Positions 28,158-64,000 of a DNA stretch of 64,000 bases are shown here, piece by piece. Positions within the stretch are counted from its first letter, which is position 1. Every line of letters begins with the position of its first letter. The position numbers and the translations under genes are program-made. The stretch covers positions 1,860,001 to 1,924,000 of the forward strand of contig OZ374563.1 of NCBI GenBank assembly GCA_977862235.1, given 5' to 3'. Source of the DNA: Dudresnaya verticillata. Its lineage: Eukaryota. Below the pieces are notes generated by a model. That model ran no database searches, was not told where the DNA came from, and worked only from the letters and a program-made list of their open reading frames with translations.

Positions 28158-28640
28158 GTAAAGACCCGAAACCCACCGTGGGTTCTATTCAGGAGGCCCC
28201 TGCTGCTCAGGGGCCTATTAAGTATACAGAGCCGAAAATTCTCCTACCTCCTATGAGCTATTCTAAGTATTCTAGCTGTAATTATTAATCTAATTGTACT
28301 GTTGTCAGTTATAAATACGGATTAGTGGTAGTACCGCGTCGAGCCGCGTGAGCGGCCACAATTAATTACCCAATGGCAATTCGCCATCAAATGTGGTGCC
28401 AGCAAGGACGCCAGCGAGGCGTGTAAGGAAGTGCCTTTTAGGTCTCTTGTGAACTCAAAGAGTGCACTCAATGAGAAAGCCACAGAGCGGGTACCTGGTA
28501 GCGGTGGTAGAGCGGGAGAGACCCAGAGGGTAGACGAGGGCACGTAACCGGATTAGAAGCACGATACTGAAGATAGTTCACTGGGCGGGCGGTTAACCGG
28601 GCACGGGTGACAAGTGTGCTGCGGTGCCGATAGCTTGGAG

Positions 28641-33990: not shown

Positions 33991-34958
33991 TGGAGACCTA
34001 GTTGGGGCCGGAAGGTGCATACCTTTACTGTTCAGTGACCGCTACGGGAGATACCCTTATATGGTACTCCGACTGTCAGGCAGCACCCCTCATACTGGGT
34101 TATATACACGCCCCCTATCCTAAGCTATAAATTCTAAAATAAATAGACAGATACTAAGCTACTGACCTGCAGGGTGACACTTGGACCAATCGTAGGCTAC
34201 CTATCTTGTCCATGCTGGCGCCCTATAGGTAACGCTATTTGCGCGCATACACGGGGGCAGAGGGCCCACTTCTGTAAGCCCTTCACTGTATTACAAGGCG
34301 CATCGCCCTTACAGCGCACGGTGCTTGTGCGCGCCTTACAGCTTGAATCGCGTGGGCGTCTTACACCTCAATGCGCACAAATGACTTACAGTGAGCCAGC
34401 ACTTCTGCTGCGGCTCATTCTTCCACACGGCCCCCTCATTAAAGCTGAGAGACCCGCGAAGCCAGCAAGGCTGTTTCTATTGGCCCCGTCTTGGGCGAGC
34501 TTGAAATCCCAGTGGGGTATTGGGCCAACGGCTCACTTGTAACCGCCGCCACTGGCGGCCGTTGTGGAACCGTTCACAGTAGTGACAAATCACTTGCTTC
34601 GCCGTCCCAGTCTCGACGGCGACCGTCTTATTATTGTGACGAATCTTTTGTGCCTTCGCGCGGAAAGCCCCAACCGGCTGCATACTTCAGCGGCTTCACA
34701 GCGGCTTCCGCTACAGTTCCTTGGGCACATCCCCACATCGCACCACCATCTCCAACACCTCCGCGCTTTGGTCCGTCGAACCATCTAGGTGTCGCGTCCT
34801 TCTTCCGCTGCGGCGGTCTGCGCACGTTGCAGTAGCGGGACCCGCTGTACCCTGTCGCCACCCGTGCACCTCTTTCTACGGCCGGGCCGTCACGTGCGCA
34901 ATAGTCAAGAATAGCCACTGTGGCTGGATAGAAGACCTGTTCACCCGTGGAAGTCAAG

Positions 34959-41400: not shown

Positions 41401-43030
41401 TTGGAAGCAGCCCGCGTGGCATGTAAAAGCAGTCTTATGCTTATCCTCCGGGGAAACCGGAATCTGCCAGTAGCCTGAGTTGCAGTCCAAGGTTGTAAAA
41501 TATTGGGCCTCGCCCAGGGAGTCCAAACAGTCGTCCATGCGCGGCAGAGGATACGTATCCTTCACTGTAATTGCGTTTAGTTTGCGATAGTCAACGCAAA
41601 AGCGGAGGGACCCGTCGGGCTTCTTAACCAAAACGACGGGGCTCGCAAACCCAGAGTGTGCAGGCTCTATAAAGCCTTCTTTGAGCATTTTGTCGACCTC
41701 ATCCTGTTCTGCTTGGCGGGCTTTAGGGCCCGACCGGTAAGGTTTCGTAAACACAGGTTTCGAACCTTCTTGAAGGTCATTACGGTGTTCGGTCACCTTG
41801 ATGGTGCCGAGTTGTCCGTCCCACATACCGGCGAACGGTTTCAGCATTTTGCGTACGCGACGCCGATCCGAAGTGGACAGGTGTGCCAGCGCGAGGTCAT
41901 CGACCGTAATAGCGGTTGTCGCTGATGTCGCGATTTTGATTCCAGGCTTAGAGTCTATATCCGTCTTCAGAGCAGCAGCAAGACCCGCCCCCTACATCGG
42001 AGAATGTTTCGGACGAGGGAAGCGAGTCACTGTCAGGAACATTATCCTCGATGGAGACAGTGTAGACCGGCGTCTGCGTGGGCGCCGGTACAGCCTTGCC
42101 AAGGATTTGATTCTTGGAAAGCCGTTGAGGACGCGAAGAGAAGTTCGCGACCTTGAGGTGGAAGAGAGGGTTCTCTTGAATGTTGACGATTCCATTCGTC
42201 AAAACGACTTGACGGCGTTCGTATAAGCGTGGAAGGGATTCCAGGAAATGTGTTCCTTTGGCGGAACAGGTAACAGGAACCCATGACTCACTGCCGGGCA
42301 GTAACTTAGTAGTTTGTGCGACGCGAAGGAGTTGCGAGTTAGGTAACGGGGGAACGTCCATTGGTTCGTCAGACCTGCCCTCACGGGGTATACCGCATAG
42401 GCGGCGTAGAATTGGGTGAATGGACCCGTCGCGAAGAACTATGTTCTGTTGGCGGACGCATAACCCTTCCACGTGGGTATCGATAAACGTGCAACCCAAT
42501 ATGGCATCTACTGCCAATGCCCTTACGACAACAAAAGGTTGCCGAACCGTGTAGGATCCGAGCCTGATTATGAGGGAGACTGTTCCCAGTGTAGTTAGTC
42601 GGTGACTTGACGCGGAGGTCAAGTTCACAATTGACCGCGTTGTAGAAATCCGTTTCTTGTCTTTCGGTGATAGAACATCCGCGCGGATGAGATTAGGGCC
42701 TGCCCCTGTATCCAGTACGGAGAGCACACGAGTAAGATCGGCAACAGAAGTCCCGATGGACGCAGCTACTTTATAGTTGTAGCGCGACAAGGAGCAAACG
42801 GGATCCTTACAATACTCATGATACTTCCGTCCAGGGGGTAAGCCCACGGGACGCGCTAAGATCTTCTTGGGAAGAGAAGTGACAGATTCACTGACAACCG
42901 GTCGATCCGTTGAGGAGAAGCTTCCGAAGCTGTATCTCGAGGAGCTTGATTCAACGTACCGATCGGGGGGTTCCGATGGCACCTGAGATATGTGGTGTAT
43001 CGAAACCGGTTCCCCCCTCGCTAGTTTTTT
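38500..43030 (-). pseudogene. pol of element C: PR, RT, RH, IN and chromodomain, with several stops and a frameshift
   Basis: VLDTGAGPNLI, YLDDII (about 41285-41302), DTDACDYQIG, GHPGG..CVKC, SDNGSQF, YHPQTNGQTER, and chromodomain YERIVSY..YRVRW..TWEP. Confidence 0.92.
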
Positions 43031-45135
43031 GCCTTCATTGCGGGCGACCGCGGTAGCGGTGGAGGTGGTGGAAAGGGACGAGGCCCTTGGCGTGGTGACC
43101 TTGGCGTTTGCCTCGGAGCCTCGATGGGGTGGTTCAGTCGAGGTTGAAATTGAACCTGCCGATTTCCCCCTTGACTTGCGCCCAAATTTTGACGGGGATC
43201 CATCCGTTGCCCTATGGGCGGCCCGGCGGGCACTCGCTCGTTAGCGAACTCCGGCATTCGACCAACAGTCGCCAGCCACGCTTTTTGCTCGTTTGATAGT
43301 TGATGAAACTGTCTTCTTTTTAAAGTCTCAAAAGACTGCTCATCGGTTCGAGCTAAATGTGGACAGTTGGGCTTTTTATGGCCAGTGCCGTAGCATTCGA
43401 AGCAGATATCATTGGGTTGGTCTTCAACCGTCACCCACCCAGGGCGTTGTGTCCTGGTTGGCTGTGCCCAGGCTGGGAGCCTATTATTGTAGTTCTGCAG
43501 TACCGCGTCAACTTCACCGTGATACGGTTGGTCGTAGTAATATGTGTCGACCACGAATCCGATTGGATCGCTGTTGATGGTGGCGCTTCGTTAGCGATGG
43601 CAGCCACGACTGCGTCTTCGCTTTCCGCATCAGAGCCGCTGCTCTTTGAAGTATCCGAATCGGAGGCGGATGCATCCTTCCCCTGGCGAATTAGGAGCGC
43701 CCGTCCTGACTTGTGGGTACGAACCTTCTTCAAGGTCTTCCTTGGTAGCGTCCTATTCGCTTTTGGCGTTCGTCCGCCACCTACTAGCGCCCGATGGGAA
43801 TCTCCCTGTGCAGTCGCAAGCTCGACGTAATCCGCCAGTCTGGCAGTCCTTGGATCCAAGGACGACGTACTTAAAAGCGGCTTCACCGCTGGTAGCAAAC
43901 CCCGAATAAACCTGGTTATCAAATCTTGTTCGGTGTATACACCAGCGACTCGACGCGCTTTGTTCTGCAACCTTCTCGAAAAGGTCACTTCGTCCTCATC
44001 GGGCTCCTGTGCCATTGTGTCCATCTCAGAGGCAATCCTCTCAATATAGACGTCCTTGGCATATGTTCGAAGAAGGTAATTCACGGCTTCGGGCCATTCG
44101 GTGAAACCACCATTGTCGTCACCCGCAGCGTCAAAATTCGCTTCAAACATATCCTTCGCATCCTTCTCGAGGAACTCGGGGATGACGAGGATAGCGGCAC
44201 CTTCGCTGATATGAGCTTGATCGAGCTGCCTCTTCACCGTGGCTAAGAAGCCAATAATTGACACCGGGTCACTCCCGTCAAAACGGCGACTCCGCATAAC
44301 GGACTTGACACGTTTGATTTTCTTCGTGGTCGTCTCGGTCACCTCGGGCCCGCGGTAATCATCCAGGTTCAATAGCCTATATCTTCTATAGGATAGCACC
44401 TATATGAAGGCGGGATTCCTAGGAGTCAGCTCCTTAACATCGGAACGTCGGGGACCCCTCCAGGAAGACCACGAAGGTCTGGTGTGCGAACGGGAACCCG
44501 GTCCTTCTGCATCCGATGGACCTGGATTAGGGTGAGACCCTGACCGAGGATTCTCTTCGTGACGATGATTCGAATATCGGTCACGATGAGAATCCACTTG
44601 CTCGCGGTGCGCGGAAGACCCAATTGGTCTGGTGCACTGGCAACCCTGTTGGCAACGGCCTCCATCCCCTTCACCTCGGGACCGACTGTCCGACCCCCTA
44701 TGGGGTAGCCTCCTACGCCTGTCGCGCGTGCCGCGAGGAACCGGTGAGCGTCGTCTCATGACTTCAGGGACAGTGTCCCTTTCGCGGATTACGCGCCGCA
44801 TCTGTAATTCCAGAAAAGCGACACAACGCTTCTCCTCATCGAGTTCTTTCCTTAGGACCTCGATGGCTCTGTCCTGTTCAACGCACCGTGCGTTGTCTAC
44901 GTTAAATTGAACGTCCGCAATAGCCATTGCGGCTTCTGTCCTGGAAAGGTCGGCAGCCTTCGTGGCTTCATCTAATTCAAGATGAACCGATTCCAACTGG
45001 TCCCCCATTGAGTCCACTTGGGCTTGTAGGGTCTCGACCCTTTCCTCTTCTAAACCCCTCAAGGGGCGTTTTTGGCAACGAGAAGTGACCATGTCTTGGC
45101 ACTTAGCCAGTAGCTGGTCGTCTCGACGAGCGGTC
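43021..45135 (-). pseudogene. gag of element C, 5'-deleted and fused to the truncated 5' LTR
   Basis: FDGSDPVSIIGFL and CFECYGTGHKKPNC (CCHC). Homology to the gag fragment at 56.9 kb stops abruptly at the LTR junction near 45135; no PBS remains. Confidence 0.8.
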
Positions 45136-45136
45136 C

Positions 45137-45620
45137 CCAGCTCGCACAGAGCAACCGTCGTGTGGAGGCAAGGCTCGTAAAGCACCTGAAAGGGAGGTTA
45201 CGGTGAGTCCGTGAATCCCAGAAAAAGGGTAAAGACCCGAAACCCACCGTGGGTTCTATTCAGGAGGCCCCTGCTACTCAGGGGCCTATTAAGTATAGAG
45301 AGCCGAAAATGCTCTTACCTCCTATGAGCTATTCTAAGCTATTCTAGCTGTAATTATTTATCTAATTGTTCTGTTGTCAGTTATAAATACGGATTAGTGG
45401 TAGTACCGCGTCGGGCCGCGTGAGCGGCCACAATTAATTACCCAATGGCAATTCGCCTTCAAATGTGGTGCCGGCAAGGACGCCAGCGAGGCGCATCGCC
45501 CTTACAGCGCACAGTGCTTGTGCGCGCCTTACAGCTTGATGCGCGTGGGCGTCTTACACCTTAATGCGCACAAATGACTTACAGTGCGCCAGCACTTCTG
45601 CTGCGGCTCATTCTTCCACA
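45137..45620 (-). repeat. Truncated 5' LTR of element C
   Basis: Matches the split 3' LTR pieces; starts TGTGGAAG on the minus strand at 45620. Confidence 0.88.
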
Positions 45621-48251
45621 CTTAGGGTAATGTAGTATAGACGTCGGGTCGATCCGAAGTCTGATACTAGCTGGTCCGAAACCGCCACACAGACCCGTCG
45701 ATGGGTAGCTGTTGGCGTTGGTAGAGCGGTGTCGGCCGCGAACACAGATTTCCGGGTTTTCAGAATCTGTGTTCCGAATCAGTCGGAAAAAAATGTTAAT
45801 GGAATGAATATTTCTATATTGCGTTGGACTGGGGAGGGGGAGCTGAGAAGAATGGTGGAATCAGTTTTGGGATAGCATGCACGGTTGCGGAGTTACAGCA
45901 TGCCGCATATACGGGTAAATGTCCCCGAAACTTTCGTGAAAGTTTCGAAACTTTCGGAATTTCCGAATTAAAATTTATCCAGAAATTGAACTGCCGCCTG
46001 CTGCCCTCCCGGGCGCGCCTGGCAGCGCACCGACGCTCGTGCTTCAGCACGCTTGGCCCCGCCCGCCGCATCTCCGCCCCGCCCTGAGCTGTGTTCAAGG
46101 GCGCAGTGTCGCCCCGCACGACTGGTACTGCTTGGCCTCCAGGGTAAATCTGGAGTATCCCAGTCGTGCGCGGCGCTCACGCACTCACGTGCTGGTACCA
46201 GTACCACCCCTTCCCATGCCCATCATTCCACTCCAAGGTCCACTGCGGCGCGCTCCTCGCGCAGCACCTCCTCCCCGCATGCCATATCGCATCGGGTATC
46301 AACCCCAACACGCCCCGCCGCTGCCAATATCCCCACCTCGCCGCGCCTCTGCGAATAGGCGGCTCCCTCTTGTATCTACCACCCGCCCTCACTGCGACCT
46401 CCAGTCGCGCCGCCATGCGCGCCAGCGAGTCCACCAGTCCGAAGACTATGCCATCATGACCACGCGTGAACGGCAGGCTTCCCCGGCTGTGCAGAACGCC
46501 ACATCTTGGATTTTCATCACTATGGACCGCTCAAGTGCGGCACTGCTGCTGGCTATGTGCCATGGGATGCCTTTTTGCGTTGCGTCCCGTTTATCGGACC
46601 AGTTGCGGGTGTCCCGGGCGCATAATTTGTGCTGGATGAGCTCATACGTGAGCAGGTCGGGCGTGATGTAGGGTACGAGGCGTCAGCAGCCTTCCAGGAC
46701 TGCACACAGAACGGCTCCACCTGTTCAGAGCGACAGATAACCAGACGTCTCCAGAAGAAGCGACGAAGCGCAGTCAAGCCGTTGCAGCGGGCTTGCGCCT
46801 GCGACGACCTTTTCAGTGCATGGGTAGTGCCAATAGTGATGGTGCAAGTCACAAGATACGTCGTTTCACAGTGATCTGTTTCCTAACTTGGTAAATCTCT
46901 ACCTTAGCCGGAGGTACCAGGTCTTTTTTCCGCGGTTGGCAGGAATCGTTATGTCGTAAGGTTAGGGGCCGTCGCAGATGTGCCCACGACAGAGATACCT
47001 GCCTTGATGCGCGCACGCATCTGTCATGGGCCTCTTCAAGTACATCTAAACTTTGAGGAGAAGGCAGCCATTAATGGGGTATATGTTCTTCGCTGGGAAG
47101 AGAATGTGGGAGCAGGTTCAACCTTCCGAAATTTTCGCCAAGGGCGTGAAGCGGATCCGGCAAGACCCAACCCTATCCCAATACGCGGGTATGCTCATGC
47201 GGCAATTCACAGAAAGGCAGTGGCTGCTTTTGTTCAGCCTTCTCGAATTCATAAAGCAGCAGAAGCGCAACAACTGGGCTCATATTACGGGGGAAATCGT
47301 AGCTGCCCACAAACTCCGCGTACAGTTGGGCTTTTGTAGCTCGCGTCAAGTGATACACTAGTTACAACCACAGCAGTCTCATGTGTCGGAGCTTAGCGTC
47401 AGTTCGGATACTGCAGCCGAAACCGTCATGGTTGGTCGGGAAACATCAGAGATTCGCATCCTTACTTACGCACGCAACACAGACTCATTCGGAACGAGTC
47501 ATCTACGCCACTTCTGTCAGTCGCGGCACATACCACTACTACCCGTTTCCCATGGCTGAGGAGAGCAACAAAGAAACAGGTTTCCATGACCTTGCTGCTC
47601 TTCTGGCATGCCGAGCGGAATACCCAACTACTCAACTGGTACGCAGACACAGCTGTGTTGGAAATTTTATTGTGCGTCACTATTGCAGCGAACGGCCTAG
47701 TACACTACGTCCCAGCGTCCCTCTTCTTCTTGCAGGCAGCATGGATTGGGGAGACTACATGCAAACGGCTTGGACTCGCGATGGGACACACGGAGTCGGA
47801 GGATGCGAAGCGACGCCGAGCCAATCTTCTCGCATTTGCTGCGCAAGCTCATGATACAATCGCCGCAGCTCAGAATGTTCTTGGGAGGTTGAACAGAGAG
47901 CTTGGGAAAGTGCAGTGCTTATTCCTTTGGGGTTCTGGAGAATGGCAAAGCCGGGGTGCAGTCGGGGTGCTAGGATGTGCAGGCCTCATTTTGCTTGCAA
48001 TTCCATCGCAGACGCTGTTTTGTTGTTCTTATTCTTCATGTTCTTTAAGCACTTCCTGCCCCCTACCAGTCGGCAATTGAAATATTGGCAGGCTTTCCAT
48101 CCCTTCGTGGATAGAATCGCGACTGAAGACAATCGAGAAAGGAGTTCATTAAAGACATAAGGTTGACTTCCCATTCTGTCTCAGTAAATTTACTCAACCC
48201 CGTTTTCTACTCTATCTATTCATTGCTATCACTGACATTCTCTCTACACGA

Positions 48252-49066: not shown

Positions 49067-49630
49067 TCATTCGTACATTCGAGTCAAATTGTTGACCTGA
49101 ACTGTGAGATGCCTGACTTGCAGCAACCGGATCTCCCTTGCGGTGTTTTCATTCATCTCTACATATCTGGTCTTGATTAATAGACGGCAGAACCGGTCCA
49201 AATGAAAAACCTCTTCTCCAGCCCTGTGGACTGTCTCAGATGTATAAGATTCCAGTAACAGAGCATTTTCCCCTGCATAGCTTCCCTCCTTCACCATTCG
49301 GACTTTTCGGCGTAGTAGGCGATACAATTCGCTAAGACTCCTTGTCTCGTGTCTGTGGTTTCGCGCTTCAGCGTGCGACAGATTCTGGCAGAAACGTTGA
49401 AAAGCTTCACTGTCCCTGCCCTCGACCAGTTCGATGCCTGATTCACTCAAAGCTTCGTGAGCCCACTGCCTCGACTTTCGGGCCATCTTCATGGACAAAC
49501 TCCCGTCAAGCGTTTTGAACATGGCATCAAGGCGATCCTCAATTGACTCGTCCTGGCATTTTCCATCGAATGGTGCCCCGTCGCGATCCACGCTAACAAT
49601 AGACATGGTTGGTGAAATGTTTGGTTGCAT
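49067..49630 (-). CDS. Orphan protein (about 187 aa)
   Basis: Protein-like composition from MQPNIS; no recognised family. Confidence 0.45.
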   Translation of the reverse strand: MQPNISPTMSIVSVDRDGAPFDGKCQDESIEDRLDAMFKTLDGSLSMKMARKSRQWAHEALSESGIELVEGRDSEAFQRFCQNLSHAEARNHRHETRSLSELYRLLRRKVRMVKEGSYAGENALLLESYTSETVHRAGEEVFHLDRFCRLLIKTRYVEMNENTAREIRLLQVRHLTVQVNNLTRMYE

Positions 49631-50433
49631 AGACGAGGAGCGCTTTGTGCAACATGCAGCAGTATCCTTGCTGTAGCAACTATGTTTTATATGACCCGTA
49701 AATCCATGTCCACGATTTTTCTGCACAAGAATGTTACGAGGAGCAAACGGACCGCAACAGTTGCGATGTTGTATTGGCGGGAAGTGCTCTGTGTCTGACG
49801 CACACGTTATTATAGTATTACGGATGTTGTTGGATGACGAACACGGGTTAGAAAATGGAATACTATGCGCAGTTACGCCACTGTACGGTTTTAACGGAGC
49901 GGGGTCTCTTAGGGACAAATAGGGGTCGAGACGCTTGACCGTATTAACGTTATGCCTGTACGGTTCCTATTGTACACCATGACCATGGATGGCGCTGAGG
50001 CCCTCACGAATTATTTTTATAGCAGGAAGTGTCTGCTGAATCAGCAGGGGTCGTTGGGGTCGTTCCCGGTTTATCTGCACAGCTCAATACCACGCGTAAA
50101 TTATGATGTCACCTGACTAATAACGTAATATACTAATCAAACTGTTACGAAGACGACGGAAATTGAGCCACAATACGACGATGCTAGTACATAAACTGAT
50201 CCCGTCACCCTGCTGTAATCCGTCAGAGGATCCAGAGACTGTCGTCCGAGTAGTAGACGTACTCGTCGCCATGAAACAAAATTGTCCTATACTGTTCCGT
50301 ATGATGAACGCAGTCGTTCTAGTACAGGAGCAGTGAAATATTGAATGTGATAGTAGTCAGAAATGGTTGGGTTGTACACTCCCACTATTAGGACACAGGA
50401 AATTGAACTTTATCAAACTGTTGGCTAACGCCA

Positions 50434-50976
50434 TCACTCCAATGCTTCTTTCAGGTCTTGTAGCCTTTTCTTCAAGAATGGCACATGAACGCAGCACCCG
50501 GTGCTTCGTCTAATCAGGTTCGCTAGGCGCCGCGGATTTTCCTCGGACTTATCTCCCTCACCATCCATAAATCCACAGTGAGGGCCCTTCCATAGGTCCA
50601 GCAGAGTCAGCCTTTCTATCCGCCGCCGCTCATAAAATTTCTTTCCTCTGTAACTGAACTTATAGTTTCCGTCGAAGTACTGCTGAGAGACGGAGAAGTC
50701 TGCACTTTCAATTGCGCTGACGCCGTACACCCTTTCATGAAACGCTTTGAAAATAGACGTGTCATAGAGACGTATTCCTAGCTCTTCCAACCCGACGATA
50801 CGCATCTGACGCTGTCTTGCCCGACTGACTATACCCACAAACCTCTCCTCTCCCATACGCTTGACTGCCTCCTTTAAGCTCTCTCCTCTCGAGTTCTTAA
50901 AATCGTTTAGGTTCAGGGTCTCCCCTTGTGAGTTGTCGACTTCTTCTCTCCCTCCAGAAGCGTTGTGCGACGACAT
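50434..50976 (-). CDS. Orphan protein (about 180 aa), divergent from the ParB-MTase gene
   Basis: aaaATG start and protein-like composition; weak resemblance to the 49067 ORF. Confidence 0.45.
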   Translation of the reverse strand: MSSHNASGGREEVDNSQGETLNLNDFKNSRGESLKEAVKRMGEERFVGIVSRARQRQMRIVGLEELGIRLYDTSIFKAFHERVYGVSAIESADFSVSQQYFDGNYKFSYRGKKFYERRRIERLTLLDLWKGPHCGFMDGEGDKSEENPRRLANLIRRSTGCCVHVPFLKKRLQDLKEALE

Positions 50977-51710
50977 TTTTAACAGTAGTACTCCACGGAA
51001 TAGGTGCAACCTCTGGGCATTCGCTAGAATGAGTACGGGTGGCTGTGAAGCGCCTGGTTTCGAGATTCCAGCGCTCATGATTTGTGCACAAAAGGGTGGA
51101 GAGTCCGACTTTAAGGGTGCAGGCATTTCTGCACAAATGTACAGAGAGGCATCAAGATACGCAGTGTCACCATAGTCACCCGAGACAGTTTCGGTTGGTT
51201 CCGAGTTGGCGCCAACGCGTGGTCTAACCTTGAGTGTGGATAGGAGCTCAATCCAAATTGCTATACCTATACAATCGTATGACCTGCGACTCGCAGCCAT
51301 GCGCATGATTTGGTCGTGAATATCTCGCAGCCTGTTTTTCGGGTAGCATAGGACTACTGTACGGACTGCAGCCCGGATCTCTGTTGTACTGCAGACCCCG
51401 CATAGTAGTCACATCCTGGTCGGGTTTCGCAGTCCTGAGACTGGAGAGTTTAGTACCGAGACTGTAGCATGTATCTGTCCACGATTGGTATGAGCAAAAT
51501 CCATGCACAAGCGGATGAGGTCAATGACAGCGGCTGAGTCACATGGTTTTAATTTAATGCATATTCTTTCTCTCATGCAGTGGGAAACGTTGTACATGCA
51601 TGTATGGGGCAAGGGCGGAAAGCTGTGTCCGACAGAGGCAGTAGTCAGAATTCATTCAGACATCCCATCCAGAACTTCGGCTTACCGGTGCACACGATAG
51701 ACTGAGAAAT

Positions 51711-54643
51711 ATGCCACCGAAAAAGAAGAAGGCAGTGGCGGTGAGGTCTGTATCCAACACAGGACAGACCTCAGCAGACGTAAGAGTGCCTGTATCATCT
51801 GGGAATGATAGAGTTCTGTTCGGAGATGTCGTTAATGGAGCTACGCACAAGCGAGTCGACCCTCGTTCATGTGTCCCGTTGACCTACGTCCGCCCGATCT
51901 GCAGATCGGGCGTCGAGCGATTGAAGCGCATTTTCCGGGGGACCGACCGGTACAGTTCAGGGACATTGAAGTCTCCCGTGGAAGGAGCTCCGGACTCTAT
52001 CGGTTACGTGGCTGGTAGTGATATGCCTGTCGTTGTGCCATTGACAGGGGCATTGAGAAGCCGTGTGTCCGATTATTTCAGGTCACAAACAAGGAAGGAC
52101 TGTACGCGTCGTTCCGAGAAAGAAGTTCAGGACATTGTGAAATCGAGGGGGAAATGGTACGGAGTAGTTGATGGAATGCATAGATTGGCAGCTATTCGTG
52201 AGCTGCTTGAAGAAAACTACAACCAGTGGAAACCCTTTGACTGGCCTGTGCTGGAGCTGAACCCGCGGACCGACGTAGTCCTGAAGCAATTCGCTCGACA
52301 TCAGAATCGTAAGCACGATGCAAACTGCTTCGTGGAAACTACCCTGTATAACACATTGAAGGGTCTGAAAGATGAGGCTGATCGCCTTCAAGCGGAGGGA
52401 AATGGTATCAAGCCGACAGCAAAAGCGGTTGCGTCCGCTTACGATGGGGTGCTCATATGCACGAGAACACAGTGAGGCAGACAGCGCAAGTAGCTCTCCG
52501 ACTAAGTCATCGTGTCATCGATGCGATAGGGGAGATAATGGGGGAAGAAATACCGTAGCTTTCATTGGCTTCACGAAATGGAAGAACTGCTAAATCAGTA
52601 GCAGACGATGCCCTGATGTCGTCGATGGACTGCCGGGATTTCCGGAAGTTTATTACTCTGAACTCACTGAAGGCTGCCACAGAGTTCATGCGTGCGGGCC
52701 AAATGAGTGGCGTGGTACATGATGAGGGTGTGGAAGTCCAGGTCTCGACACTCTACCGCATTCGAGAAGTATGCAGGAGGAACGGGTTCAGGCCCGTTCT
52801 TTACGGGGTCACCAAATCAGAGTTCGGGAAGGCTAAAGATGCGCTAGCAGAGGTTCGCAAAGTCGAAGGCCTTCGTGAATCTGAGGACTGGCCGGGTCCC
52901 ATGGACACGATGCGGACAAATCTTCTGCGATCCGAAACGTTTGATGGCGATATCATGCTTAACAGGGGCAACGACACATTGATTTTGCAATGCATTCTGG
53001 ATATGTACAAGGACTGCTGTCCGGAAGACGCACCCCTGAAGATTCACAAGTACCATTCTGTTAGAGATAGGAACAGAAAGGAATGCGATGAAGAGAAGAA
53101 TTTAGACCGGGAGTGTGTGAATGAGATTACGACTGGAGTGCAAGATTCAGGGGGGGTCAATTCCGATCAGGTAACAACTGCTGGAAACAAGGACCATCCC
53201 TCTGACGGACAGATCGAACACGATGACGTTCCCTCTCCTTCTGTGAACGTAGATTCGTTACCTTGCAGTCGAGACCTCGGTTCTCCCGGAGACCATCACA
53301 ATCATGATGCAGAAGATATGCAGGGATCGGCTGTAAAATCTGCTGTGACGGTGAGCACGGAAAAATCGGAAAGGCTGGCTGTACGTGGGGACAAGCACGG
53401 ACCTGACGACCATTTGCAAGCTGATATCTTGAAGTCGTACAGAATAACCTGCCATCAGATGCGGTGGCAGGTATACAATAAGAATATTCGCGAGGGTGTT
53501 GGTGATCTATACGACATAGTTCTTACCGACACACCGTATGGAACGCCTGAATCACAGTCTGGTGCAGGGAAACACTACGACAACTATATGAGTGATTCTG
53601 AAATATCCGAGCTTGCAGAAATGTGCAGGGAATCCGTTGTACCGGGAGGGTGGGTGTTCATGTTCGTGTCCTACCAGACATTCGAACCTATAAGGCAGGC
53701 TCTTCTGAAGGCCGGATTCACTTGCCCAACGTACGCCTTTTCGATTGCGAAGGATACACACACGGTGCAGGAGAGGCGAGGAAATGACTGTCCCCAAAAT
53801 GGCCACGAAATTGCGGTCATGGGAAGAGCCCCAGGACAACACCCCAACGGATTTAAAGTGGATCTTCGAAGCCCATATCAATTAGTGAAGGCTTCGGAAA
53901 AGAGAAAGTTTGCGTGCATGTCTCAAATTCCCGTTTCTAAGAAGAAGCTCCTTAAACCGGGTACAAAATCCCCGGTGCCTACTGAGGAGAAGAATGTTTA
54001 GCTTTTGGTGGAATTGTTAACGACCTTCTGCCCTGAGGGGGGGGCCATTTTGGACATGTATGCTGGAACGATGACAGCTGCAATTGCAGCCGTGCAGACT
54101 GGTAGGAAATGCACCTGTATAGAGCAGAGCCTACAGACATACAGGCTTGCAGTTGCACGCCTGAAAAGGATAGCAAGTGATCATCGCAAGTTGTCGGAAG
54201 GAATGGAAGGAACACCATTGTGCCATGGTACAGCGGGAGAGGCCCTGGGAGAAGACCAGGGAGCGGATGTGGAAAACCCGCAACAGAAACTGCTCAGGAA
54301 TGAGGCGAAGAAGAATTCGGATTGTATCACTGGCGGCGATGCAGTTGTTCTGTACGTTGGGAAGAACGCTGTTGGGAAGGCAAAAGTCCAATTCGGGGCA
54401 AGTCCTGATGAAAACGTTCGCAAGCAGATTCATCTGAAACCCCTGTCGGAATACGAAAAGCCAGGACAGGAACTCGTTGCGGTGTACGCCTTCGAATGTG
54501 ATTCATCCTTTGCCACCTCAGCATATCCGTATAACTTTCATGTCCCGAACGGCCGCCCTTCCACGATTCTAAGTGAGCTAGACGGATTTTTTGCATGGGA
54601 TATCCATGCGATGAAAGCCCAGGAGCGGTGCGACCAGAAATGA
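51711..54643 (+). pseudogene. NLS-ParB/Srx-HTH fused to a beta-class N6-adenine/N4-cytosine DNA methyltransferase plus a C-terminal Tnp1/EnSpm-like domain (about 975 aa if repaired)
   Basis: MPPKKKK; ParB motifs MPVVVP and YGVVDGMHRLAAIREL; HTH-like TAKAVASAYDG..ENTVRQTAQVA; motif IV YDIVLTDTPYG (53528-53539); PTEEKN; motif I ILDMYAGTMTAAIAA..GRKCTCIE. Lesions: frameshift near 52450, TAG at 52556 and TAG at 53999. Confidence 0.82.
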
Positions 54644-55105
54644 GGGTAAAGCAGAGTTGAGCACAATAATCGTTCGCTTCACTAGTTTCCTACGCCATAG
54701 CGCAATATCGTAAGCCATAATCACATGCTACTCCTCGCTGGAGACACTGTACTGCCATCGACAGTGCTATCCCGGTAGAAGTCCACAGCGCAAAAGTTGC
54801 ATCATCGCTCGGTCCCATTTCCGCAGCAACGTCTCTTTCACACTGTCGAATCTGCAGAGTTCCATCGAATTATAGCTCTTGCAGAGCATGGGATGAATGT
54901 CGAGCGGCATGGAAGATCTGCCAGCAAGCATCTACAGGAATGATGCATCCACGGCCCCGGTAGAGTAGTAGTAGCGAGGCGGGTCGGGTCACAGCACGGT
55001 GAGAATACCGAGAGCTTCGATTTGCAGGTAGGTGCACTCGAGCAATACACTTGCGTCTCATCGCGGGACGAGTGCCCGTAGTTCCGAAATTACTGCAATC
55101 GCGTG

Positions 55106-55390
55106 AAAACCTATCCAATATTATGGAGAATGACCAACAGCTTTTCGGAAAGCCGCACGTAAATTTCTATTAAACAGCACATACACTGTACGAGATCTAA
55201 AAATCTATGATAGGTTTTCCGAAACGTGAGTGCTCATGTGCTGTTTAATAGCTTTTTGAATCTCACTAGTCGAAAAGCTGTTATAGGTTTTGCGATTGCC
55301 TCGGGCCAAACACCTTTTTGATAGAAACTACGTTTGATCGACCCCAGGACCTATTCCATATTATGGAGAATGCAAGATAGCTTTTCAGGT
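55106..55390. repeat. Cluster of short direct and inverted repeats
   Basis: ATATTATGGAGAATG twice; AAAACCTAT/ATAGGTTTT; AACAGCTTTTCG/CGAAAAGCTGTT. Confidence 0.7.
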
Positions 55391-55900
55391 CGCGCGGCAT
55401 AACTCTCCAGGATTTTTTCCACAAGATTTATCGCTGATTCCCTTCTGGGACTTTTCTTTCGGAACACCTGGGTCCCTCCACCCATCCGGTTGCTGCCCAG
55501 CGCCCTCCCAAACGCAATCGCAACCGAACCGCCGCGTTTCGCTACAACCCCCTCCCGCCCGCCCCCCGCGACTGGCGCCAGGTCGCGCCCCACCGCACCC
55601 CACCGACCCGCACAACTACTGTGCTTCCCGTCGCACTTCCGCACCACGCCCCCGAAGCTGCATTGGGGCCTTTTTATGCGTTGCGTGCAGTCCAGATGGA
55701 AAGAATATCTCCCCGAGCGGTGAAGATGATCTGGTTTCGATCTGGTGCAGAAAGTTGTGCGAACACGTCTGGTCGAGGGTGAGGTGCTCTACATAGGAGT
55801 ATACAACTTTCATCAATTGCCGCCTCTGTGATTGATGCACCAGCGACCGCATTTTGGTCAGGGCGGCTTGTCGTCGCCACAATTCTCGGTTAGGGTTTAA

Positions 55901-56621
55901 ATGGAGGTATTCCCATGCGTTTATCGCCGTATGGAGCGCTTTAGGGGTCGCGCCACGGAAAGCTTGCTCGCGAAGAAGAAGCTGCGATACTGTACGCCTC
56001 GCAGTGGCCAGGAGCAATGGGAGATAGGTGTTACTTTTCTATTGCTACCGTTCCTGCTGATCACGCTGACCTTGCTCACCATCGTCGTGTGCGTCAGCGT
56101 GTGGGCAAGCGTGTTCCGACGGCAACTCTTTTGAAGTTATTCACGGCCACCCGCCAGAGGAGGCCGGAAGCGGCTCTGCTCGCCGGGACAAGCTTTCAGA
56201 AACGGAGGTGAACGCCATGTTTCCCTCCTTTGTCTTCACGAATGGTGAAACGGCCGCGTTGGGGGCGACCGGCGATGTGTGCTGCTCGGTGTGCTTGTGT
56301 AGCTTTGAGGAAGGGCACATGCTGCGGCGGCTTGCATGTGGACATTGTTATCACTCGACGTGCCTGGACCAGTGGCTGTTGACGAATGCAACGTGCACTC
56401 GATGTCGAAAGTCGGCAAGGATCAACGGTGAGGCAACACGGTATTCGTGGTTCTCACGGCGGGTGTTTTCTCGTGTGTTTGGCAGTATAAGGTTCCCAAC
56501 CAGATTGCTCCCACCGTTCTTGAAACCGCGGGGGAGAGACATTGGGCTGTACGAAACAGTAGAGACAGAGGAGTTCTTATCGGAAAGCGATTTGTCGAGG
56601 CTCTTCGGCCCGGGTCCATGA
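55901..56621 (+). pseudogene. TM + RING-H2 (ATL-like) E3 ubiquitin ligase, frameshifted in a T-run near 56130
   Basis: TM segment FLLLPFLLITLTLLTIVVCVSVW; LSETEVNAMFPSFVF; CSVC..CGHCYHSTC..W..CTRC. The 5' boundary is uncertain. Confidence 0.75.
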
Positions 56622-56896
56622 CGTGACGGTTGGGTGCGAGCATTGGCATTTTTGTGATACACATATAGAGCTATTTATTACTCACGGGACGCAGAATCGT
56701 TTTCGCAACAGGGTTGGCTGAGAAAATAGACAGACGTACCAAAGGCTAGAATGAGGACAGAAGAGCCCCCGCTGACATCGGGGAGAATGACGGTTCAGGC
56801 CGTAGAATGATGCCGCCGTCCCTGGCGTTAGTCAGTGTTCAAGCTATGGGCGGATGAGCCCAGAAAGAAGAAACTCCGGCAACCCCGGACGAAGGG

Positions 56897-57912
56897 TTGC
56901 CAATTCGAACGAAGTATCATTCGTCTGATATCCGATGTTTCACGGAGCGCGAGATTGGACGAATGATCGAATTAGGCATCGAGAGATCCTTAACGACTAG
57001 CGTCGTGGCACTGTTGGAGAGCCAATCCGATGATAACTTTTTAAAGGTCAAGAGGTACATTGATGAGGCATCCGCGCGCCACGATGATCGCCTCCTGGCG
57101 AGGTGTCAGCAAGAGATTGAATCTCGAGGTCGACCAGGTCCTCCCAGAGGATTAGACGAAGAAAGGGTCGAAACCCTGCAGGCGCAAGTGGATTCCCTCG
57201 GGGACCAAGTGGATACCGTCCAAGAGGAACTACAGGCGCTCAACAAGGTCACAGACCTAACAAGAACAGAAGCCGTAATGGCTATACAAGACGTTCAACG
57301 GAACGTGGACGACACAAGGTGTGTCGAACAAGATCGAGCCATCGAGCCCTTACGCAGAGATCTCGATGGAGAAAGACGGAAGGTCGCGTTGCTAGAAGCA
57401 AAGATGAGGCGACTTAATCTTGAAAGGGATTTAATCCCTGAAGTCGAACGACGACGCTCCCCTGTGCCTCGAGGCACCAGGGACCGTCGCAAGATGCCAC
57501 AGTCTCCGCGACGTGACTCGGGAGGGGAGTCTGGAAATGGCGACTTTGGTCGTGAAAGGACGGAACACCCTCGGTGTGATTGCCGGGCGACACACGTTTC
57601 CAACGTGGGCGCAGCCGAATTGACTCACGTCAAGACCGGTACTCAAGCCGCAAGGCGGAAGATCAACGCCGAAGTAATTCCTACCCTGCTCCGAAACACT
57701 CGGATGAAGATGAACCCACCTCGCGAGGTCTTTCCCGACCGTCAAGGAGCTCTGGGAGAGGCCCACGTCGGACGGGACCCAAGGAGTTGGCTCCACGAAA
57801 CCCTGCCTTTGTACAGGTTCTTTCGTACCGACGCTATCGGTTGTTGAATGTCGATTCATATCGAGGACCGGAAGTAACGGAAGCCACGTCCAAGAAGATT
57901 AAACGGGTTAAA
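56897..57912 (+). pseudogene. Truncated gag fragment related to element C
   Basis: RGLDEERVETLQAQVDS, RRRSPVPRGTRDRR and LSYRRYRLLN..YRGPEVTE..KKIKRVK are near-identical to the 43.4-45.1 kb proteins; no LTRs seen. Confidence 0.85.
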
Positions 57913-57954
57913 TACGTAACAGACACAGGACAACGCTGTCGGGAACGCGGGATG

Positions 57955-58727
57955 TTTTGCTCTTGCAGCCTGGGCTGCGGTCTGAGGGGCATCAGTCATC
58001 GATTCATCCGCCTTCAGGCCCGGAAGCTCTGCAGAGACGATGAACTTGACGCCGTCCTTGCCGACAACTTTGATACAAAAGCGGGGCTGGTTGATGACGA
58101 GACGCTTCTGGACCTCAGCGATGCACTTGCGAATGACCACTAGGTCATCGTTCAAAGTCATATTCTTCTTCCAATAGCGATCAAGCGTCGATAACACAAA
58201 GTACTGTGCATACCCTTCCGCGGCGAAAGTGAGCTTATGTAGCGTACCGAGGTAATCGCACGAATACAGCGACGGGCCGTCGCCGTTGGGCAGTGAGTCG
58301 TACCCCGCGATCATGACATTGCACTGATGCGGCGCTTTTCTGCTCGCAACACACGGGAAAACATAAGCAGGAAGAAAGGTTAGAGCGGTGACCTTCTCGC
58401 GCAATGGGACACGCAAAACGAATATGCATCCGCGGTATCCCTTTCGTAGCTGAGGAACTTGGCGAGCTCGCCGCGCGTGTAGTTCGCGACGGCAGCGGTG
58501 GACATGGTGATGCCAGAGCGCAGGTTGTACAGTCTGACGTCCTTCTACACGTGTTCGGTGAACTTTGCAACGTCTCCGGCGACACCAGCGGCGGCGAAGA
58601 GTTTGTACTCGTCGAGTGCGCGGATCTTGTCCATGTCCTCCTTCATGAAGACGACGGACCCGGCACTGGCAACATCTGCGGCAATAACAACGAAGTCGCC
58701 GCCCTGCAGCGCGATGATCGACTCCGT
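57955..58727 (-). pseudogene. PSMB2: Proteasome subunit beta type-2 (beta-4/PRE1) pseudogene with retained intron
   Basis: (ACG)ESIIALQGGDFVVIAAD..MKEDMDKI..V*KDVRLYNLRSG..ANYTRGELAKFLR / KAP..NVMIAGYD..PSLY..DYLG..GYAQYFVLSTLDRYW..CIAEVQKRLVIN. Start ATG>ACG, internal TAG, and an intron (about 58340-58450) with donor GT>CT, CTAAC branch point and CAG acceptor. Confidence 0.9.
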
Positions 58728-59049
58728 TGTGGATTTGCAGCGGGGCGATTGGGGTGTGGCTAGGCTCGAATGCTGATGGTGTTGGCGGGGCGGCTTGGGG
58801 CAGGCGATTTGATGGAGGGGGCGGAGGTTCCAGCGCGTTCAGGCGCAGCGCTGGATCGCCTTGGCATTGCAGTGCCTGACGTGGATCGCGCCTTACAGAA
58901 TAATCTCGAGTTGCTATTCGCCGCGCAGCCCGGAGCATCCACCGAAACGAAACACGACCAGCATCGCACGCCTACTCGCGTGCTTCGCATACCATCCCTT
59001 CCTGCTCTATGTCCTGCTTCGTGCCCAACCTCCTCCGCTCCAAACCACC

Positions 59050-59214
59050 ATGTCTGCCCTCCTCTCCCCGCCGCGCCCGGTGCGCACGCGCTTCAAAGTA
59101 CCGGGCGAGGGCGCATATGAGCTATGCACGGAGCTGCCGCCACCGCCAACTCTCCCACCGCCACCCCCCAAAACGCCCGCTACGCCAACCCCAGCCACGC
59201 CCCCACCTGGCTAG
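59050..59214 (+). pseudogene. 5' fragment of a gene divergent from PSMB2, possibly WDR20/DMWD-like
   Basis: accATG, then MSALLSPPRPVRTRFKVPGEGAYEL, resembling the N-terminal 'T.F...EG.Y.L' motif of WDR20-like proteins; truncated after a Pro-rich stretch. Confidence 0.35.
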
Positions 59215-60215: not shown

Positions 60216-60988
60216 GTTGTGCGTAAGGTAGAGTCTGGAATGTTTGTCTCACGGCGAACTTCAAATTTGCAGACTGGTACTTGATGCACAGGTTGGTGCA
60301 TGTTCGCAAACTGGTGAAAAGCCATCTGTAGCCCACGGCAGCTCATTGGATTGACTTGTCCTTCTTCTGCAAGAAAAATCACGGGGTATCGAGACGTAGA
60401 CACCAACGCAGCCGGCAGGCGGGGTCTTACTTCTCAGCCCCTCTCGATGCTATTTCTTATCCTTGACGCCCATCAGTATTACCCGCTTGCGGTCGCATGG
60501 CGGAATAGAGCAGTCTGCAGGGCGTACCCTTGCAATACAGAGTACTGCTTCTTGATTGACAGGGACTCGAGATTCGCGACTTGTCCGTTCTGATTGGTAA
60601 CATGGCACGCTCGTCTCTCGAATCAGACTGTTTTGTTCGCACTGGCGCTATAGTGTATGGCGGAATGGAGTGGTGCATACAGAGCGAGAGGGAAGCCCTT
60701 CCAATACCAGTCGTTTTAACTGGGATCCGTAGCAACTGTGGGCATGCGCAAGCCTGTCATGCAGAACGCCCCACCGCCTCTGGAACAGTATTATATCGGT
60801 GACGTTTCAGAAGCGCCCTCGCCGCTCCCGAGTATTTCAGCTCTTCAGAACAAGTAGCGCACAGCTATCGCGCCCTAGCGGGAACATCGATTTTGTTGCT
60901 TCACTTCGCCCGCCCTGAGTGCAAGGAGCATCTTGCACTAGTGAATTGCAAAAGGCTCAGACTCCCCTGCCGAAAGGGGTAGTAGGGC

Positions 60989-63900
60989 ATGGCCCAAGCC
61001 TCATCTGGGCAGGTTTCGAAAGCAGCAAACGTTCCAGTTCAGAATGACGACGATTTCGGCGATGAGCTGCTTCCCGGAACAAAGCCCGGCGCACGAGTCA
61101 TGCTCACTCTCAACGGGGAAAACGTTGCTACAGCAACCCTGCTACGACCTCATGATTTTAGGGAGGGTGCCGTTGATCCCAGTGGTCGATTCACCACATA
61201 CCTGCACGGGCGCAACCTTGGGCCTCAACAACGTGATGGAGAAGTATGGGTTGTAGTTCACCTCGTGCGATTCCTCCACAACTGCAATTCCTACGAAAAC
61301 CCGTTCCAGTACAAACCAGGCAGTACGCCTTGTCCGGAGACACTGAGTCGAATGCAGACTGGAAAACATGCCTGGGACCTATTCCAGATTGAGGATCTCG
61401 TAACCATCTACGATACAGAGCGCAGAAAAAGCTCAGGTGCGACTGTCTCGGCAGTGGAAAAACGTGCGGTGGCTGACGCTAACCCACCAACACCCCCTCT
61501 GCTCAGGGTTCGCAAATCCGCTCCTCACCCAAAAAAGCAGCATGGTGCGGAAGAAATGGCAGCGGTTAACAGCCCTTCAACACCACCGCCAGAGAAAGTC
61601 AATGAAGAGGAAGATGTCACAAAACTTCTGCAATACACACCTGTACGCCGGCCCCCTATGCGTGAACGACCCCAGAAACCACCCAAGAATAACGTCCCGG
61701 GCGCCTTACCAGTCTCTTCGGCCCCAGTGTCTCTTGAACCCACGACTACACCCTTGGAAGAGAGATCCTCGTGTAGGCGTGACAGACAGAGGCGATGCAG
61801 ATCTGAAACAAAACTCTACTAGTGCTGTCGGATCTATTCCTTCTCGAGGAAAAGGAGCCAGCGACGAAGAGAACTGTATCACGCCCCAGCCATGCCCTGC
61901 ACACAATGTCAGACGTACGCCTGAAAGCAGTTCGGGTTTTAGTAGTGGCGCACCAGAACCCGACCCTGATGCTACCCCGGCGTTGGCCGCGATCACTAAC
62001 ACAAAGGGTGACGTGGAACGAACGCCAGGTGCTGATGGCTCGGAAATAGAGCATGGTGAGGAGCAATCAGATGCTGTGACGTTGGATCTGGTGAGCGACG
62101 CAGAAGTGGAAGGTGGAAGTGATGGAATATTAGAAGACGAAGATACTGGAAGCGACCAGGAAATTGAGGACCTCACCAAGGACGCAGATTACGTGCCAAG
62201 TGCGACAATTGCACGAAGACGCACGGCAGCATATGAGGCTGAACGGGTCCCGCAAACGCCCAGAGTTGCTGAGGATGAGACCAATGGCTCCCGAAAGAGA
62301 AGGTACCGCTTCTACGCAGGACAAAGAAAGAAGTTGAGGGTTGGTGATACTGCATTGCAAAAGCGTCGCAATGCTGCTCTGGAAAGGCTTGATGAAGAAG
62401 ACTGGGGCTCCAAGGAGTGCGGCATGCGGAAGCAATGCTTCAAGAGGGTATCTATTATGTACATGAAAGCCGAGATTCGCAAACTGTTGCGTATGGACGC
62501 CCATGATCGACGAAACTATTTGCACGGGTTGTTGCAGCGCCCGGGATGGAATTATTACTTCGACGGAAAGCCAGTATGCTACACGTTCCTGGAGACGGCG
62601 TTTGGGTTTTCCAGGGACCTGCAATATTCAGTCAAACAGTTTGGTGGAAGCCGGCCTATGGAGGGTGACAATGCCGTGCCGTATCAGCCTCCGAGTGAGG
62701 GCAGGGATAAGATACTAAGTTACCTCAACCGGCTTGCTGAGATAACAGCAAGCTGCATGCCCGACGCAGATGAGAAGCATCTGCCGTACTTTGATAAGGC
62801 TGCGGTCTACGAGAACTTCCTTCTGGACCAGGAGAGACTGTATCCTGGAAAAGACCCGCCTCGACTAAACTACTTCTACCACGTCTGGAAGCAGCACCGC
62901 AGTGACATAAAAGTCCGCAAAATCCAACGCTTCACAAAATGTTCGGAGTGTGAATAATTTCGTGCTGGACTTGCCAGGGCCGGTACAAACCGCAGACTTG
63001 CGGAGCCGTTCCTGCTCCGTAGAAAGGAACACTACAAGCTGGTTACAAAGGAGAGGGTGTACTACAGGGAGAATACGGAAAAAGCTACTTTGTATCCCTC
63101 CGAGTACTGTTCACTGATAATTGATGGCTCGGACCAGAAAGCGTTCGGAGTACCAAAGTTCGTGGTCAGCACGAAGGCTACGCGTGGACATTCCATAGCA
63201 AGCAAAGTTGTGGGCGCATTGGAACACGGTTCATTGAAGCACCTATCCCTGTTCGTCATGACAGGAGAGTTTGAGACTGGCGCAAATCACATAATCGAAA
63301 CAGTCCATCGCCTTCTCACAGTCAAGCATAACCATGGCACTCTGCAGCCTACGCTGTTACTGCAGCTAGACAACTGCACCCGGGAGAACAAAAATAAGTA
63401 CATGCTTTCTTACCTGGAGTGCTTAGTCGCGTGGGGTGTTCTGCATGAAGTGCAGGTTTCCTTTCTCCCAATCGGCCACACCCATTCCGACATCGACCAG
63501 GCCTTCAGTTGCACAAGCAAGAGGGTCCGATCAAAAGACATGCCGACCATGTCTTGCCTTCTCCGCGAACTAAGCATGCAATACACGCGTCGTCCATCGG
63601 TGGCAAGGTTGCTGCAGGTAGCCAACTTTTCCGGGCTGTGTGACAAGTTTGCGTGTATTGGCAAGAATGAAGCATTCTCACACTACAGATTCTTTAGAAT
63701 TACTCGCCAACGTGGGAAGGGAATGGGCAGAAAAGCGAGATTCCGCACGCGATGCCTCGTCAAGATTCAGTGTGGAGATGAGTGGAAACCTCTTGTAACA
63801 GAAGCACGTGGCAACTCTCTCAAACAGGAAGGCTTCATACTATTCACCCCTGACCTCGTTAAGACGCCAGAGACCATAGCGCGATGCCCACCTGATATGA

Positions 63901-64000
63901 AGGAGGTCAATGATCGCATACGTTGCACCGAAGTCCGAGCGCTCAAGGCGTCGCAGATCACCGAACTGGAAAATCTTAGGGATCACGTCTATAGAGATCG
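60989..64000 (+). pseudogene. Sola1/DUF7869-like DDD transposase with N-terminal Tnp1/EnSpm-like domain; frameshift near 61800, TAA at 62955; runs off the window
   Basis: RFTKCSECE; manual in-frame read-through gives CSLIIDGSDQ (D 63123), ETGANHIIE, LLLQLDNCTRENKNKY (D 63369) and SFLPIGHTHSDIDQAFS (D 63489/63495). Confidence 0.8.

Follow-up and report, generated by a model that had tools for sequence, protein, structure and literature searches.

Hardly any transposons are known to modify their own DNA epigenetically, and the accessible text of the Bostrychia study names only VANDAL (bioRxiv 10.1101/2025.02.11.637652). In Ectocarpus, a 21.5-kb element, Sola1-1_Ec32, carries a gene for a 1104-amino-acid (aa) protein with ParB and N4/N6 methyltransferase domains, for which self-marking was proposed; according to the available portion of the report, the gene of this brown alga is on the strand opposite to the transposase, inside 282-bp terminal repeats, and giant Ectocarpus elements with captured host genes are also described (PMC12477816). 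In red-algal Plavaka elements, the accessible text of the Bostrychia study describes PAG2, which combines PF01555 with a SET domain, and PAG3, in which a ParB-like N-terminus precedes a 2-oxoglutarate (2OG) oxygenase; inverted-repeat arrays adjoin Bostrychia PAG3, and both genes move between transposon superfamilies (bioRxiv 10.1101/2025.02.11.637652). Here, we characterize a gene of this kind in 64,000 nucleotides of Dudresnaya verticillata DNA (contig OZ374563.1 of assembly GCA_977862235.1, positions 1,860,001 to 1,924,000), hereafter the window. The gene, at 51711..54643, is dead. We consider it likely, with a probability of about 0.62, that it is a copy of a ParB-fold and beta-class amino-methyltransferase gene that was an accessory of a giant algal transposon, and whose intact product bound the repeats of its own element and wrote N6-methyladenine (6mA).

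Comparison with Described Systems

By its described architecture, the Sola1-1_Ec32 protein resembles the family of the window gene in joining a ParB-like and an N4C/N6A methyltransferase domain in one chain of about 1000–1100 aa (PMC12477816). Unlike in Sola1-1_Ec32, the transposase-like gene of the window is on the same strand as the methyltransferase gene, and no element ends were found. The accessible text makes no mention, for Sola1-1_Ec32, of a C-terminal barrel or a palindrome array such as those described below (PMC12477816). As far as the Plavaka genes are described, PF01555 is common to PAG2 and the window family, and a ParB-like N-terminus with a repeat array alongside is common to PAG3 and the window gene. 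Unlike PAG2 and PAG3, the window family joins the ParB-like domain and PF01555 in one chain; none of 48 long relatives has a SET domain, and the second enzyme is a methyltransferase in place of the 2OG oxygenase.

Among prokaryotic enzymes, CcrM, M.BceJIV, and M1.HpyAVI share with the family the fold, the order of motif IV before motif I, and DPPY as motif IV. The family differs from prokaryotic beta-class enzymes by its low identity (~20–27%, over the methyltransferase domain only), by its separate branch in the tree, and by four additional features: a helical domain in the middle, linkers that are long and disordered, a basic N-terminus, and the barrel at the C-terminus. Phage fusions of ParB with a methyltransferase are also among the closest known systems; the model of the intact relative P0013 can be aligned over 804 columns with a phage entry named ParB/Sulfiredoxin. 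In eukaryotes, the bdelloid rotifer N4CMT, whose activity has been demonstrated, produces N4-methylcytosine (4mC) and has an SPPY motif and a chromodomain (PMC10406627; see also PMC8885841). It is likewise a bacterial-type beta-class amino-methyltransferase with a small C-terminal module, but the window family has a ParB domain, of which the accessible text on N4CMT makes no mention, and DPPY in place of SPPY (PMC10406627). Chlorophyte-type Dam proteins of algae and chytrids carry a helix-turn-helix (HTH) of the ParB type N-terminal to an adenine methylase; the available text places these "ParB-HTH" methylases in the M.EcoKI/M.TaqI group, not in the circularly permuted beta group (PMC4738411).

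The ParB-methyltransferase gene is therefore a variant of recently proposed algal transposon accessory genes, which are so far predictions. A preliminary description of the locus overstated its novelty, as both the architecture and the idea of self-marking are already in print for Ectocarpus Sola1-1, in the accessible text of that report (PMC12477816). What is new here is the barrel common to transposase-like proteins, the 9-bp motif array with palindromes, the frequent loss of the catalytic motif in open frames, and three broken host-type genes. The C-terminal domain and the motif array were both absent from the preliminary description. The literature searched, as far as accessible, makes no mention of barrel sharing, family size, or catalytic decay; the Ectocarpus and Bostrychia supplements may hold members of the family.

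A Dead Gene Copy with Four Domains

The gene has the following layout:

51711..54643, + strand: ParB-like / helical / beta-class amino-methyltransferase / small-barrel pseudogene of ~977 codons (three-frame translation and relatives)
51711..51731, + strand: basic N-terminus MPPKKKK, a putative nuclear signal whose exact string is not conserved
51813..52316, + strand: ParB/Srx-fold domain, approximate limits mapped from residues ~24–192 of P0013
52386..52504, + strand: predicted HTH segment (putative label, from helices of the P0013 model), cut by the frameshift
52446..52449, + strand: frameshift within a run of four G (three-frame translation and alignment of relatives)
52556..52558, + strand: in-frame TAG (three-frame translation)
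52559..53030, + strand: all-helical conserved middle domain (limits approximate) of no known family; a linker predicted to be disordered comes next
53513..54151, + strand: beta-class N6-adenine/N4-cytosine methyltransferase domain (PF01555; profile, and fold of a relative)
53999-54001, + strand: in-frame TAG inside the methyltransferase domain (three-frame translation)
54329..54622, + strand: C-terminal beta barrel of ~100 aa, weakly SH3-like, common to the N-terminus of DUF7869 transposase-like proteins

By three-frame translation, the start ATG at 51711 opens MPPKKKKA and the final stop is the TGA at 54641-54643. The preliminary description had joined three open reading frame (ORF) pieces into one gene through a frameshift and two TAG stops. 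This reconstruction holds, because intact relatives align across every break. We reject an intron at the frameshift: alignment positions around it are occupied by residues in the relatives, and the one GT-AG stretch that could be removed measures 17 nt. We likewise reject TAG recoding, as the relatives do not have one constant residue opposite the stops, either at the two sites or from one relative to another, and a nearby break is a TAA. Motif IV, read as DTPY at 53528-53539, lies ahead of motif I, DMYAGT at 54053-54070, which is the beta-class order noticed initially. The window copy falls within a branch of seven rows (SH-aLRT 96); because its six neighbors all have DPPY, the most plausible account of DTPY is that this copy has decayed. 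With the frameshift, two TAG stops, and DTPY for DPPY, the copy is dead, as had been stated; the two stops alone would make it so, should the shift in the G run be a homopolymer error.

The methyltransferase profile match suggested as a check exceeds the cut-off once the breaks are read through: the C-terminal 729 aa, with the TAGs read as X, match PF01555 at 41.1 bits (E 2.6e-10, cut-off 26.7), and three relatives reach 45.7–51.9 bits. Taken separately, the window pieces match weakly (E 0.054 and 1.4e-4). The AlphaFold2 model of P0013 (mean predicted local distance difference test score, pLDDT, 79.6) has ordered domains at residues ~20–435, 555–815, and 900–999. For the middle one, the top match in the VIA fold search is CcrM (Z 24.3, root-mean-square deviation [rmsd] 3.1, 228 aligned residues); the N4CMT fold gives Z 19.9. 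M.BceJIV, M1.HpyAVI, and CcrM head both the Foldseek results and a profile search of solved structures. Together with the predicted CcrM-like fold, the position of motif IV ahead of motif I supports a beta-class amino-methyltransferase of prokaryotic type; an intact motif IV and an open frame are lacking in the window copy and present in its closest relatives. Adenine is probably the target base, by analogy with CcrM (DPPY) and not with the 4mC enzyme N4CMT (SPPY), although motif IV is not decisive on this point.

VVDGMHR, with DGMHR at 52170-52184, is present in the N-terminal part, where the preliminary description recognized a ParB/Srx core. Pfam ParBc matches neither the window piece nor the relatives, and the assignment therefore rests on the fold. 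Residues 18–192 of P0013 match six ParB/Srx entries in the VIA fold search: PadC is the best (Z 9.0, rmsd 2.9, 98 aligned), Pnob8 ParB follows with Z 8.5 (rmsd 4.4, 214 aligned, residues 23–362), and KorB (Z 7.3), sulfiredoxin (Z 7.1 and 5.9), and SerK (Z 6.5) complete the list. The convergence of these matches on one region of the model holding DGxHR, a motif of the GxxR type, supports a ParB/Srx fold. Phage ParB/Srx and Spo0J entries of a viral library also match the model, and a Pfam-type scan yielded weak DndB matches (E 0.075 and 5e-4). The HTH-like segment that had been proposed next to this core finds no profile match, but helices 225–233 and 242–252 of the model flank a nearly invariant Gly and fall inside the span of the Pnob8 ParB alignment, which may indicate an HTH after the ParB core. 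The proposed SV40-like signal PPKKKK is indeed at the N-terminus, while the exact string is not conserved in relatives; a basic motif occurs within the first 60 aa of 13/49 relatives, versus 76/686 other 60-aa stretches.

Language-model look-alikes of the N-terminal half (P0013 residues 20–435) in the Atlas are unnamed viral clusters and, at 0.94, fungal DUF3723, with 143–161 shared features. DUF3723 proteins are cargo of Starship elements. The likeness is a lead toward a possible common ParB-like origin; no paper in the literature searched treats DUF3723 and ParB together.

A Large Family with Frequent Loss of the Catalytic Motif

The 729-aa C-terminal query matched three proteins among 7997 scored candidates. 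Their clusters include intact members of 944–1010 aa, which align over the whole gene with 33–52% identity over the matched parts and keep DGMHR, DPPY, and D.Y.GT. The intact DPPY relatives that had been anticipated thus exist, six of them in the branch of the window copy, where DPPY, motif I, and DGMHR have all persisted despite ~50% divergence. The N-terminal piece retrieved six proteins (45–52% identity). An exhaustive search against clusters at 50% identity gave 546 matches at E≤1e-3, of which the best 150 were listed, 213 at 1e-10, and 81 at ≤1e-30.

We aligned 49 of the 56 proteins of at least 750 aa; five near-copies, P0004 (replaced by P0015, a longer member of its cluster), and P0026, devoid of the N-terminus, were left out. 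A Pfam scan of 48 long relatives identified PF01555 in 47 (E≤0.05) and neither SET nor ParBc in any; the window protein also has no SET domain. According to profiles built from the same rows, the N-terminal, middle, and methyltransferase domains are present in 47/48 long representatives and the C-terminal domain in 15/48. In P0021 and P0030, the place of the barrel is taken by a tail that is rich in cysteine and resembles a zinc finger; the family thus swaps its C-terminal module.

Motif IV retains a canonical-like form in 19/49 long relatives, and its state switches at least five times on the family tree. Because the canonical motif is missing in the other 30, methylation is not the universal job of the family; judging from the alignment, many lineages would have lost catalysis later and would act as binders only. 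DGx[HY]R is present in 20/49 relatives. The two motifs are concordant in 42/49; this corresponds to only three independent pairs on supported branches, which is not significant and too few for a coupled loss to be claimed.

A rapidly built tree with 127 methyltransferase domains separates 52 family rows from 75 metagenome-locus rows (SH-aLRT 97); the metagenome loci served solely as outgroup, and no donor can be named from this tree. None of 296 pattern matches of a first metagenome motif scan was confirmed as a relative. A second scan, of ~2/64 parts, gave 76 loci with the methyltransferase domain only (20–41% identity), none with the other domains of the family. Viral scans listed no loci, with two relatives counted in one of them, and 185,579 prokaryote genomes, scanned twice by motif, yielded no family member; as all these motif scans are narrow, their blanks weigh little.

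A C-Terminal Barrel Common to Transposase-Like Proteins

The C-terminal domain leads to a second gene of the window:

60986..64000, + strand: broken DUF7869 transposase-like gene running off the window, with an N-terminal domain (~61082-61393) homologous to the C-terminal domain of the methyltransferase

A profile built from 15 methyltransferase C-termini matches the start of this ORF at E 1.5e-13, its sole other match among 1504 window pieces; the DUF7869 match lies in the later part of the gene (E 1.5e-44). Six intact relatives of the DUF7869 gene were found (1057–1239 aa), the best of which maps onto both parts of the window gene. In four of the six, the barrel profile matches the N-terminus, with E between 5e-24 and 4e-17; the top score from 300 shuffles is 4.2 bits. 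This common domain links the methyltransferase family to transposons, albeit indirectly and at the sequence level. The preliminary description had the gene carried by a DNA transposon: the common barrel speaks for it, and the window offers neither ends nor a target-site duplication.

The barrel is predicted to fold confidently (pLDDT 95.8). Its fold matches are all weak SH3-like barrels (KOW, Tudor, PWWP, PsaE; best VIA Z 4.5, Foldseek E≥1.1), with chromo, Tudor, and PWWP barrels among them. No Pfam family is common to more than one of 21 members, and neither the PDB sequences nor the Atlas gave a match. With these blanks and such weak fold matches, we assign the barrel to no family. A likeness to plant Tnp1/TnpA-type domains found no support in these searches. 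A conserved domain is also common to the C-termini of the DUF7869 proteins P0168, P0169, P0171, and P0172, behind the catalytic region; its matches are weak and below cut-off, e.g., BAH at E 0.043 in one. We tentatively take the DUF7869 proteins, from their motifs, to be DDE transposases, perhaps Sola-like. Papers retrieved for DUF7869 together with Sola were all unrelated in the literature searched.

An Array of a Private Motif Downstream of the Gene

The region following the methyltransferase gene contains a cluster of short repeats:

55105..55386, no strand: private 9-bp motif repeated as an array, with copies in either orientation, 460–740 bp past the stop of the methyltransferase gene
55200-55218 and 55273-55291, no strand: two imperfect 19-bp palindromes, paired half-sites with a 1-bp spacer

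Seven of the eight exact matches to the motif in the whole window fall in the 280 bp after the gene. Because the 9-bp pattern had been drawn from the array region itself, we ran a motif-blind test, which gave nine copies versus at most five in 200 shuffles and ranked the region first among 120 tiles with GC≤0.55. A small repeat cluster at 45.7–46.0 kb is weak by comparison, 8/200 shuffles being as high. The palindromes and the array could be parS-like candidate sites for the methyltransferase protein or candidate subterminal sites for the transposase.

Genes and Elements around the Methyltransferase Gene

The other genes of this part of the window are the following:

46177-48080, + strand: broken host-type membrane-protein gene, C-terminal hydrophobic region over several frames
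49067..49966, − strand: orphan ORF with weak matches below cut-off (AbiJ_NTD3 E 0.002, MULE E 0.047)
50434..51408, − strand: orphan ORF divergent from the methyltransferase gene, no family match, possible further cargo
55660-56621, + strand: RING-finger gene disrupted by stops and a frameshift, its product including a hydrophobic segment (Pfam, translation)
57920-59050, − strand: proteasome beta-subunit copy (PF00227), disrupted by one in-frame TAG and one frameshift (Pfam, translation)

Orphan ORFs span 48.2–51.4 kb to the left of the methyltransferase gene. The pieces of the membrane-protein gene that were scanned have no Pfam match. All three host-type genes, at 46–59 kb, are broken, which fits captured cargo; since the proteasome gene is normally essential, its copy is probably a captured or duplicated dead one. 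Nothing recognizable is intact from the Gypsy end near 45.6 kb to the end of the window, and Rfam has no match at 45–64 kb. This interval is consistent with the decayed remains of a single giant element that had captured host genes, or with several adjacent relics. Long intronless host-type ORFs and the long terminal repeat elements, like the parallels in print, would suit a red-algal host. Third-position GC is 0.52–0.54 in the methyltransferase gene, 0.55 in Gypsy pol, 0.58 in the transposase-like gene, and 0.59–0.70 in the three host-type genes.

Several retrotransposons precede this interval. A broken element at 38500-45620 (− strand), which by its motifs we take to be Gypsy-type, has a terminal repeat of which further copies lie at 28158-28421 and 34296-34428. 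Beside the proteasome copy, 56858-57915 (+ strand) holds the 5′ fragment of a relative, diverged to 70% identity. The element at 28638-33990, presumably Copia-type, has 433-bp repeats that are 99.5% identical and is a young insertion, its frames being nonetheless broken. Long antisense ORFs without Pfam match occur at the 3′ ends of two long terminal repeat elements (22159-24666, − strand, 836 aa; 35384-37048, + strand, 555 aa).

Weighing the Explanations

According to the explanation we favor, a self-marking accessory gene of a transposon, the ParB/HTH half would recognize the 19-bp palindromes at 55.2–55.3 kb in a parS-like manner and may load at or spread from them. The methyltransferase would probably be dimeric like other beta-class enzymes, which work as multimers according to the accessible text of PMC10406627, and would mark adenines of the element (4mC being possible). 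This mark might sustain the activity of the element or identify it as self. The small barrel, a module that passes between transposase and accessory gene, may anchor the two to a common DNA, chromatin mark, or partner. In many lineages, catalysis would later have been lost, leaving binders only. We are far more tentative about a bolder version, in which giant algal transposons carry a phage-style self-marking module: a ParB clamp-like loader that sits on palindromes specific to the element, marks that element with 6mA, is wired to the transposase by the barrel, and has repeatedly decayed into catalytically dead binders serving as decoys or shields. The window would then hold a single decayed element of >18 kb (~45.7 kb to beyond 64 kb) with the methyltransferase gene, palindromes, captured host genes, and transposase.

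Several observations weigh against the favored explanation. The 64-kb window contains no terminal inverted repeat pair, no target-site duplication, and no second copy of the gene; the transposase-like gene lies 6.3 kb downstream, beyond several other genes; and a separate element could end in the motif array. The barrel itself is confined to 15 of the 48 long representatives. Regarding the ParB half, four of the six fold matches have Z <8, which according to the tool is unspecific for a single match; Pfam detects neither ParBc nor the ParB HTH in the window piece or the 48 long relatives; and PHROG ParB-like matches are weak (E 0.03–0.06 in 2/7 proteins). Finally, 30/49 long relatives devoid of canonical motif IV still have open frames of 750–1190 aa. 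This last observation, together with the repeated changes of state of the motif, points to an accessory protein that mainly binds or bridges the DNA of the element, for end pairing, loading, or shielding, with the methyltransferase fold as a dimerizing DNA-binding scaffold and the array bound by the transposase. The resemblance of the array to a subterminal repeat block and the barrel common to transposases, which directs attention to the transposition machinery, also speak for a binder. We nevertheless regard this as unlikely, given the conservation of DPPY, motif I, and DGMHR in the branch of the window copy and the 19 relatives with a canonical-like motif IV.

It is still less probable that the gene is a chromatin enzyme domesticated by the host to mark or silence transposons, as a parallel with rotifer N4CMT would have it, and that the window copy is a dead duplicate. 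The copy does sit among dead host-type gene copies, and its small C-terminal barrel recalls the N4CMT chromodomain, as described in the accessible text (PMC10406627). Yet hundreds of divergent clusters, variable tails, frequent catalytic loss, and a domain common to transposase-like proteins are at odds with domestication, as is a third-position GC close to that of Gypsy pol and below that of the host-type genes, though the transposase-like gene is also close to the latter. Methylation of RNA, for instance the transcript of the element, or of cytosine N4 in place of DNA adenine appears very improbable: METTL3/14, MTA1, and N4CMT are in the same fold class and PF01555 cannot separate 6mA from 4mC, but the closest folds and profiles are those of the DNA adenine enzymes M1.HpyAVI, M.BceJIV, and CcrM, motif IV is not the SPPY given for N4CMT in the accessible text (PMC10406627), and the Pfam scan of 48 relatives revealed no RNA-binding domain. 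That a bacterial or phage contaminant was joined into a eukaryotic assembly can practically be dismissed. Both main domains are of prokaryotic type, but the family is split from the metagenome-locus methyltransferases, phage matches span the methyltransferase only (23–32%), the prokaryote genomes scanned gave no member, a eukaryotic-type transposase gene of the window contains the C-terminal domain as well, and the GC of the gene region is continuous with that of the neighboring elements. Fold, profiles, and neighboring eukaryotic-type elements thus bear out the initial view of a prokaryotic-type enzyme in a eukaryotic setting.

Significance

With intact candidates (P0013, P0166, P0002, and P0015), a candidate binding site, and a transposase-linking domain now in hand, the idea of self-marking by this gene family becomes directly testable. 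If true, these genes would give eukaryotic DNA a source of 6mA that does not involve the MT-A70 enzymes, and would amount to a phage-derived means of counter-silencing.

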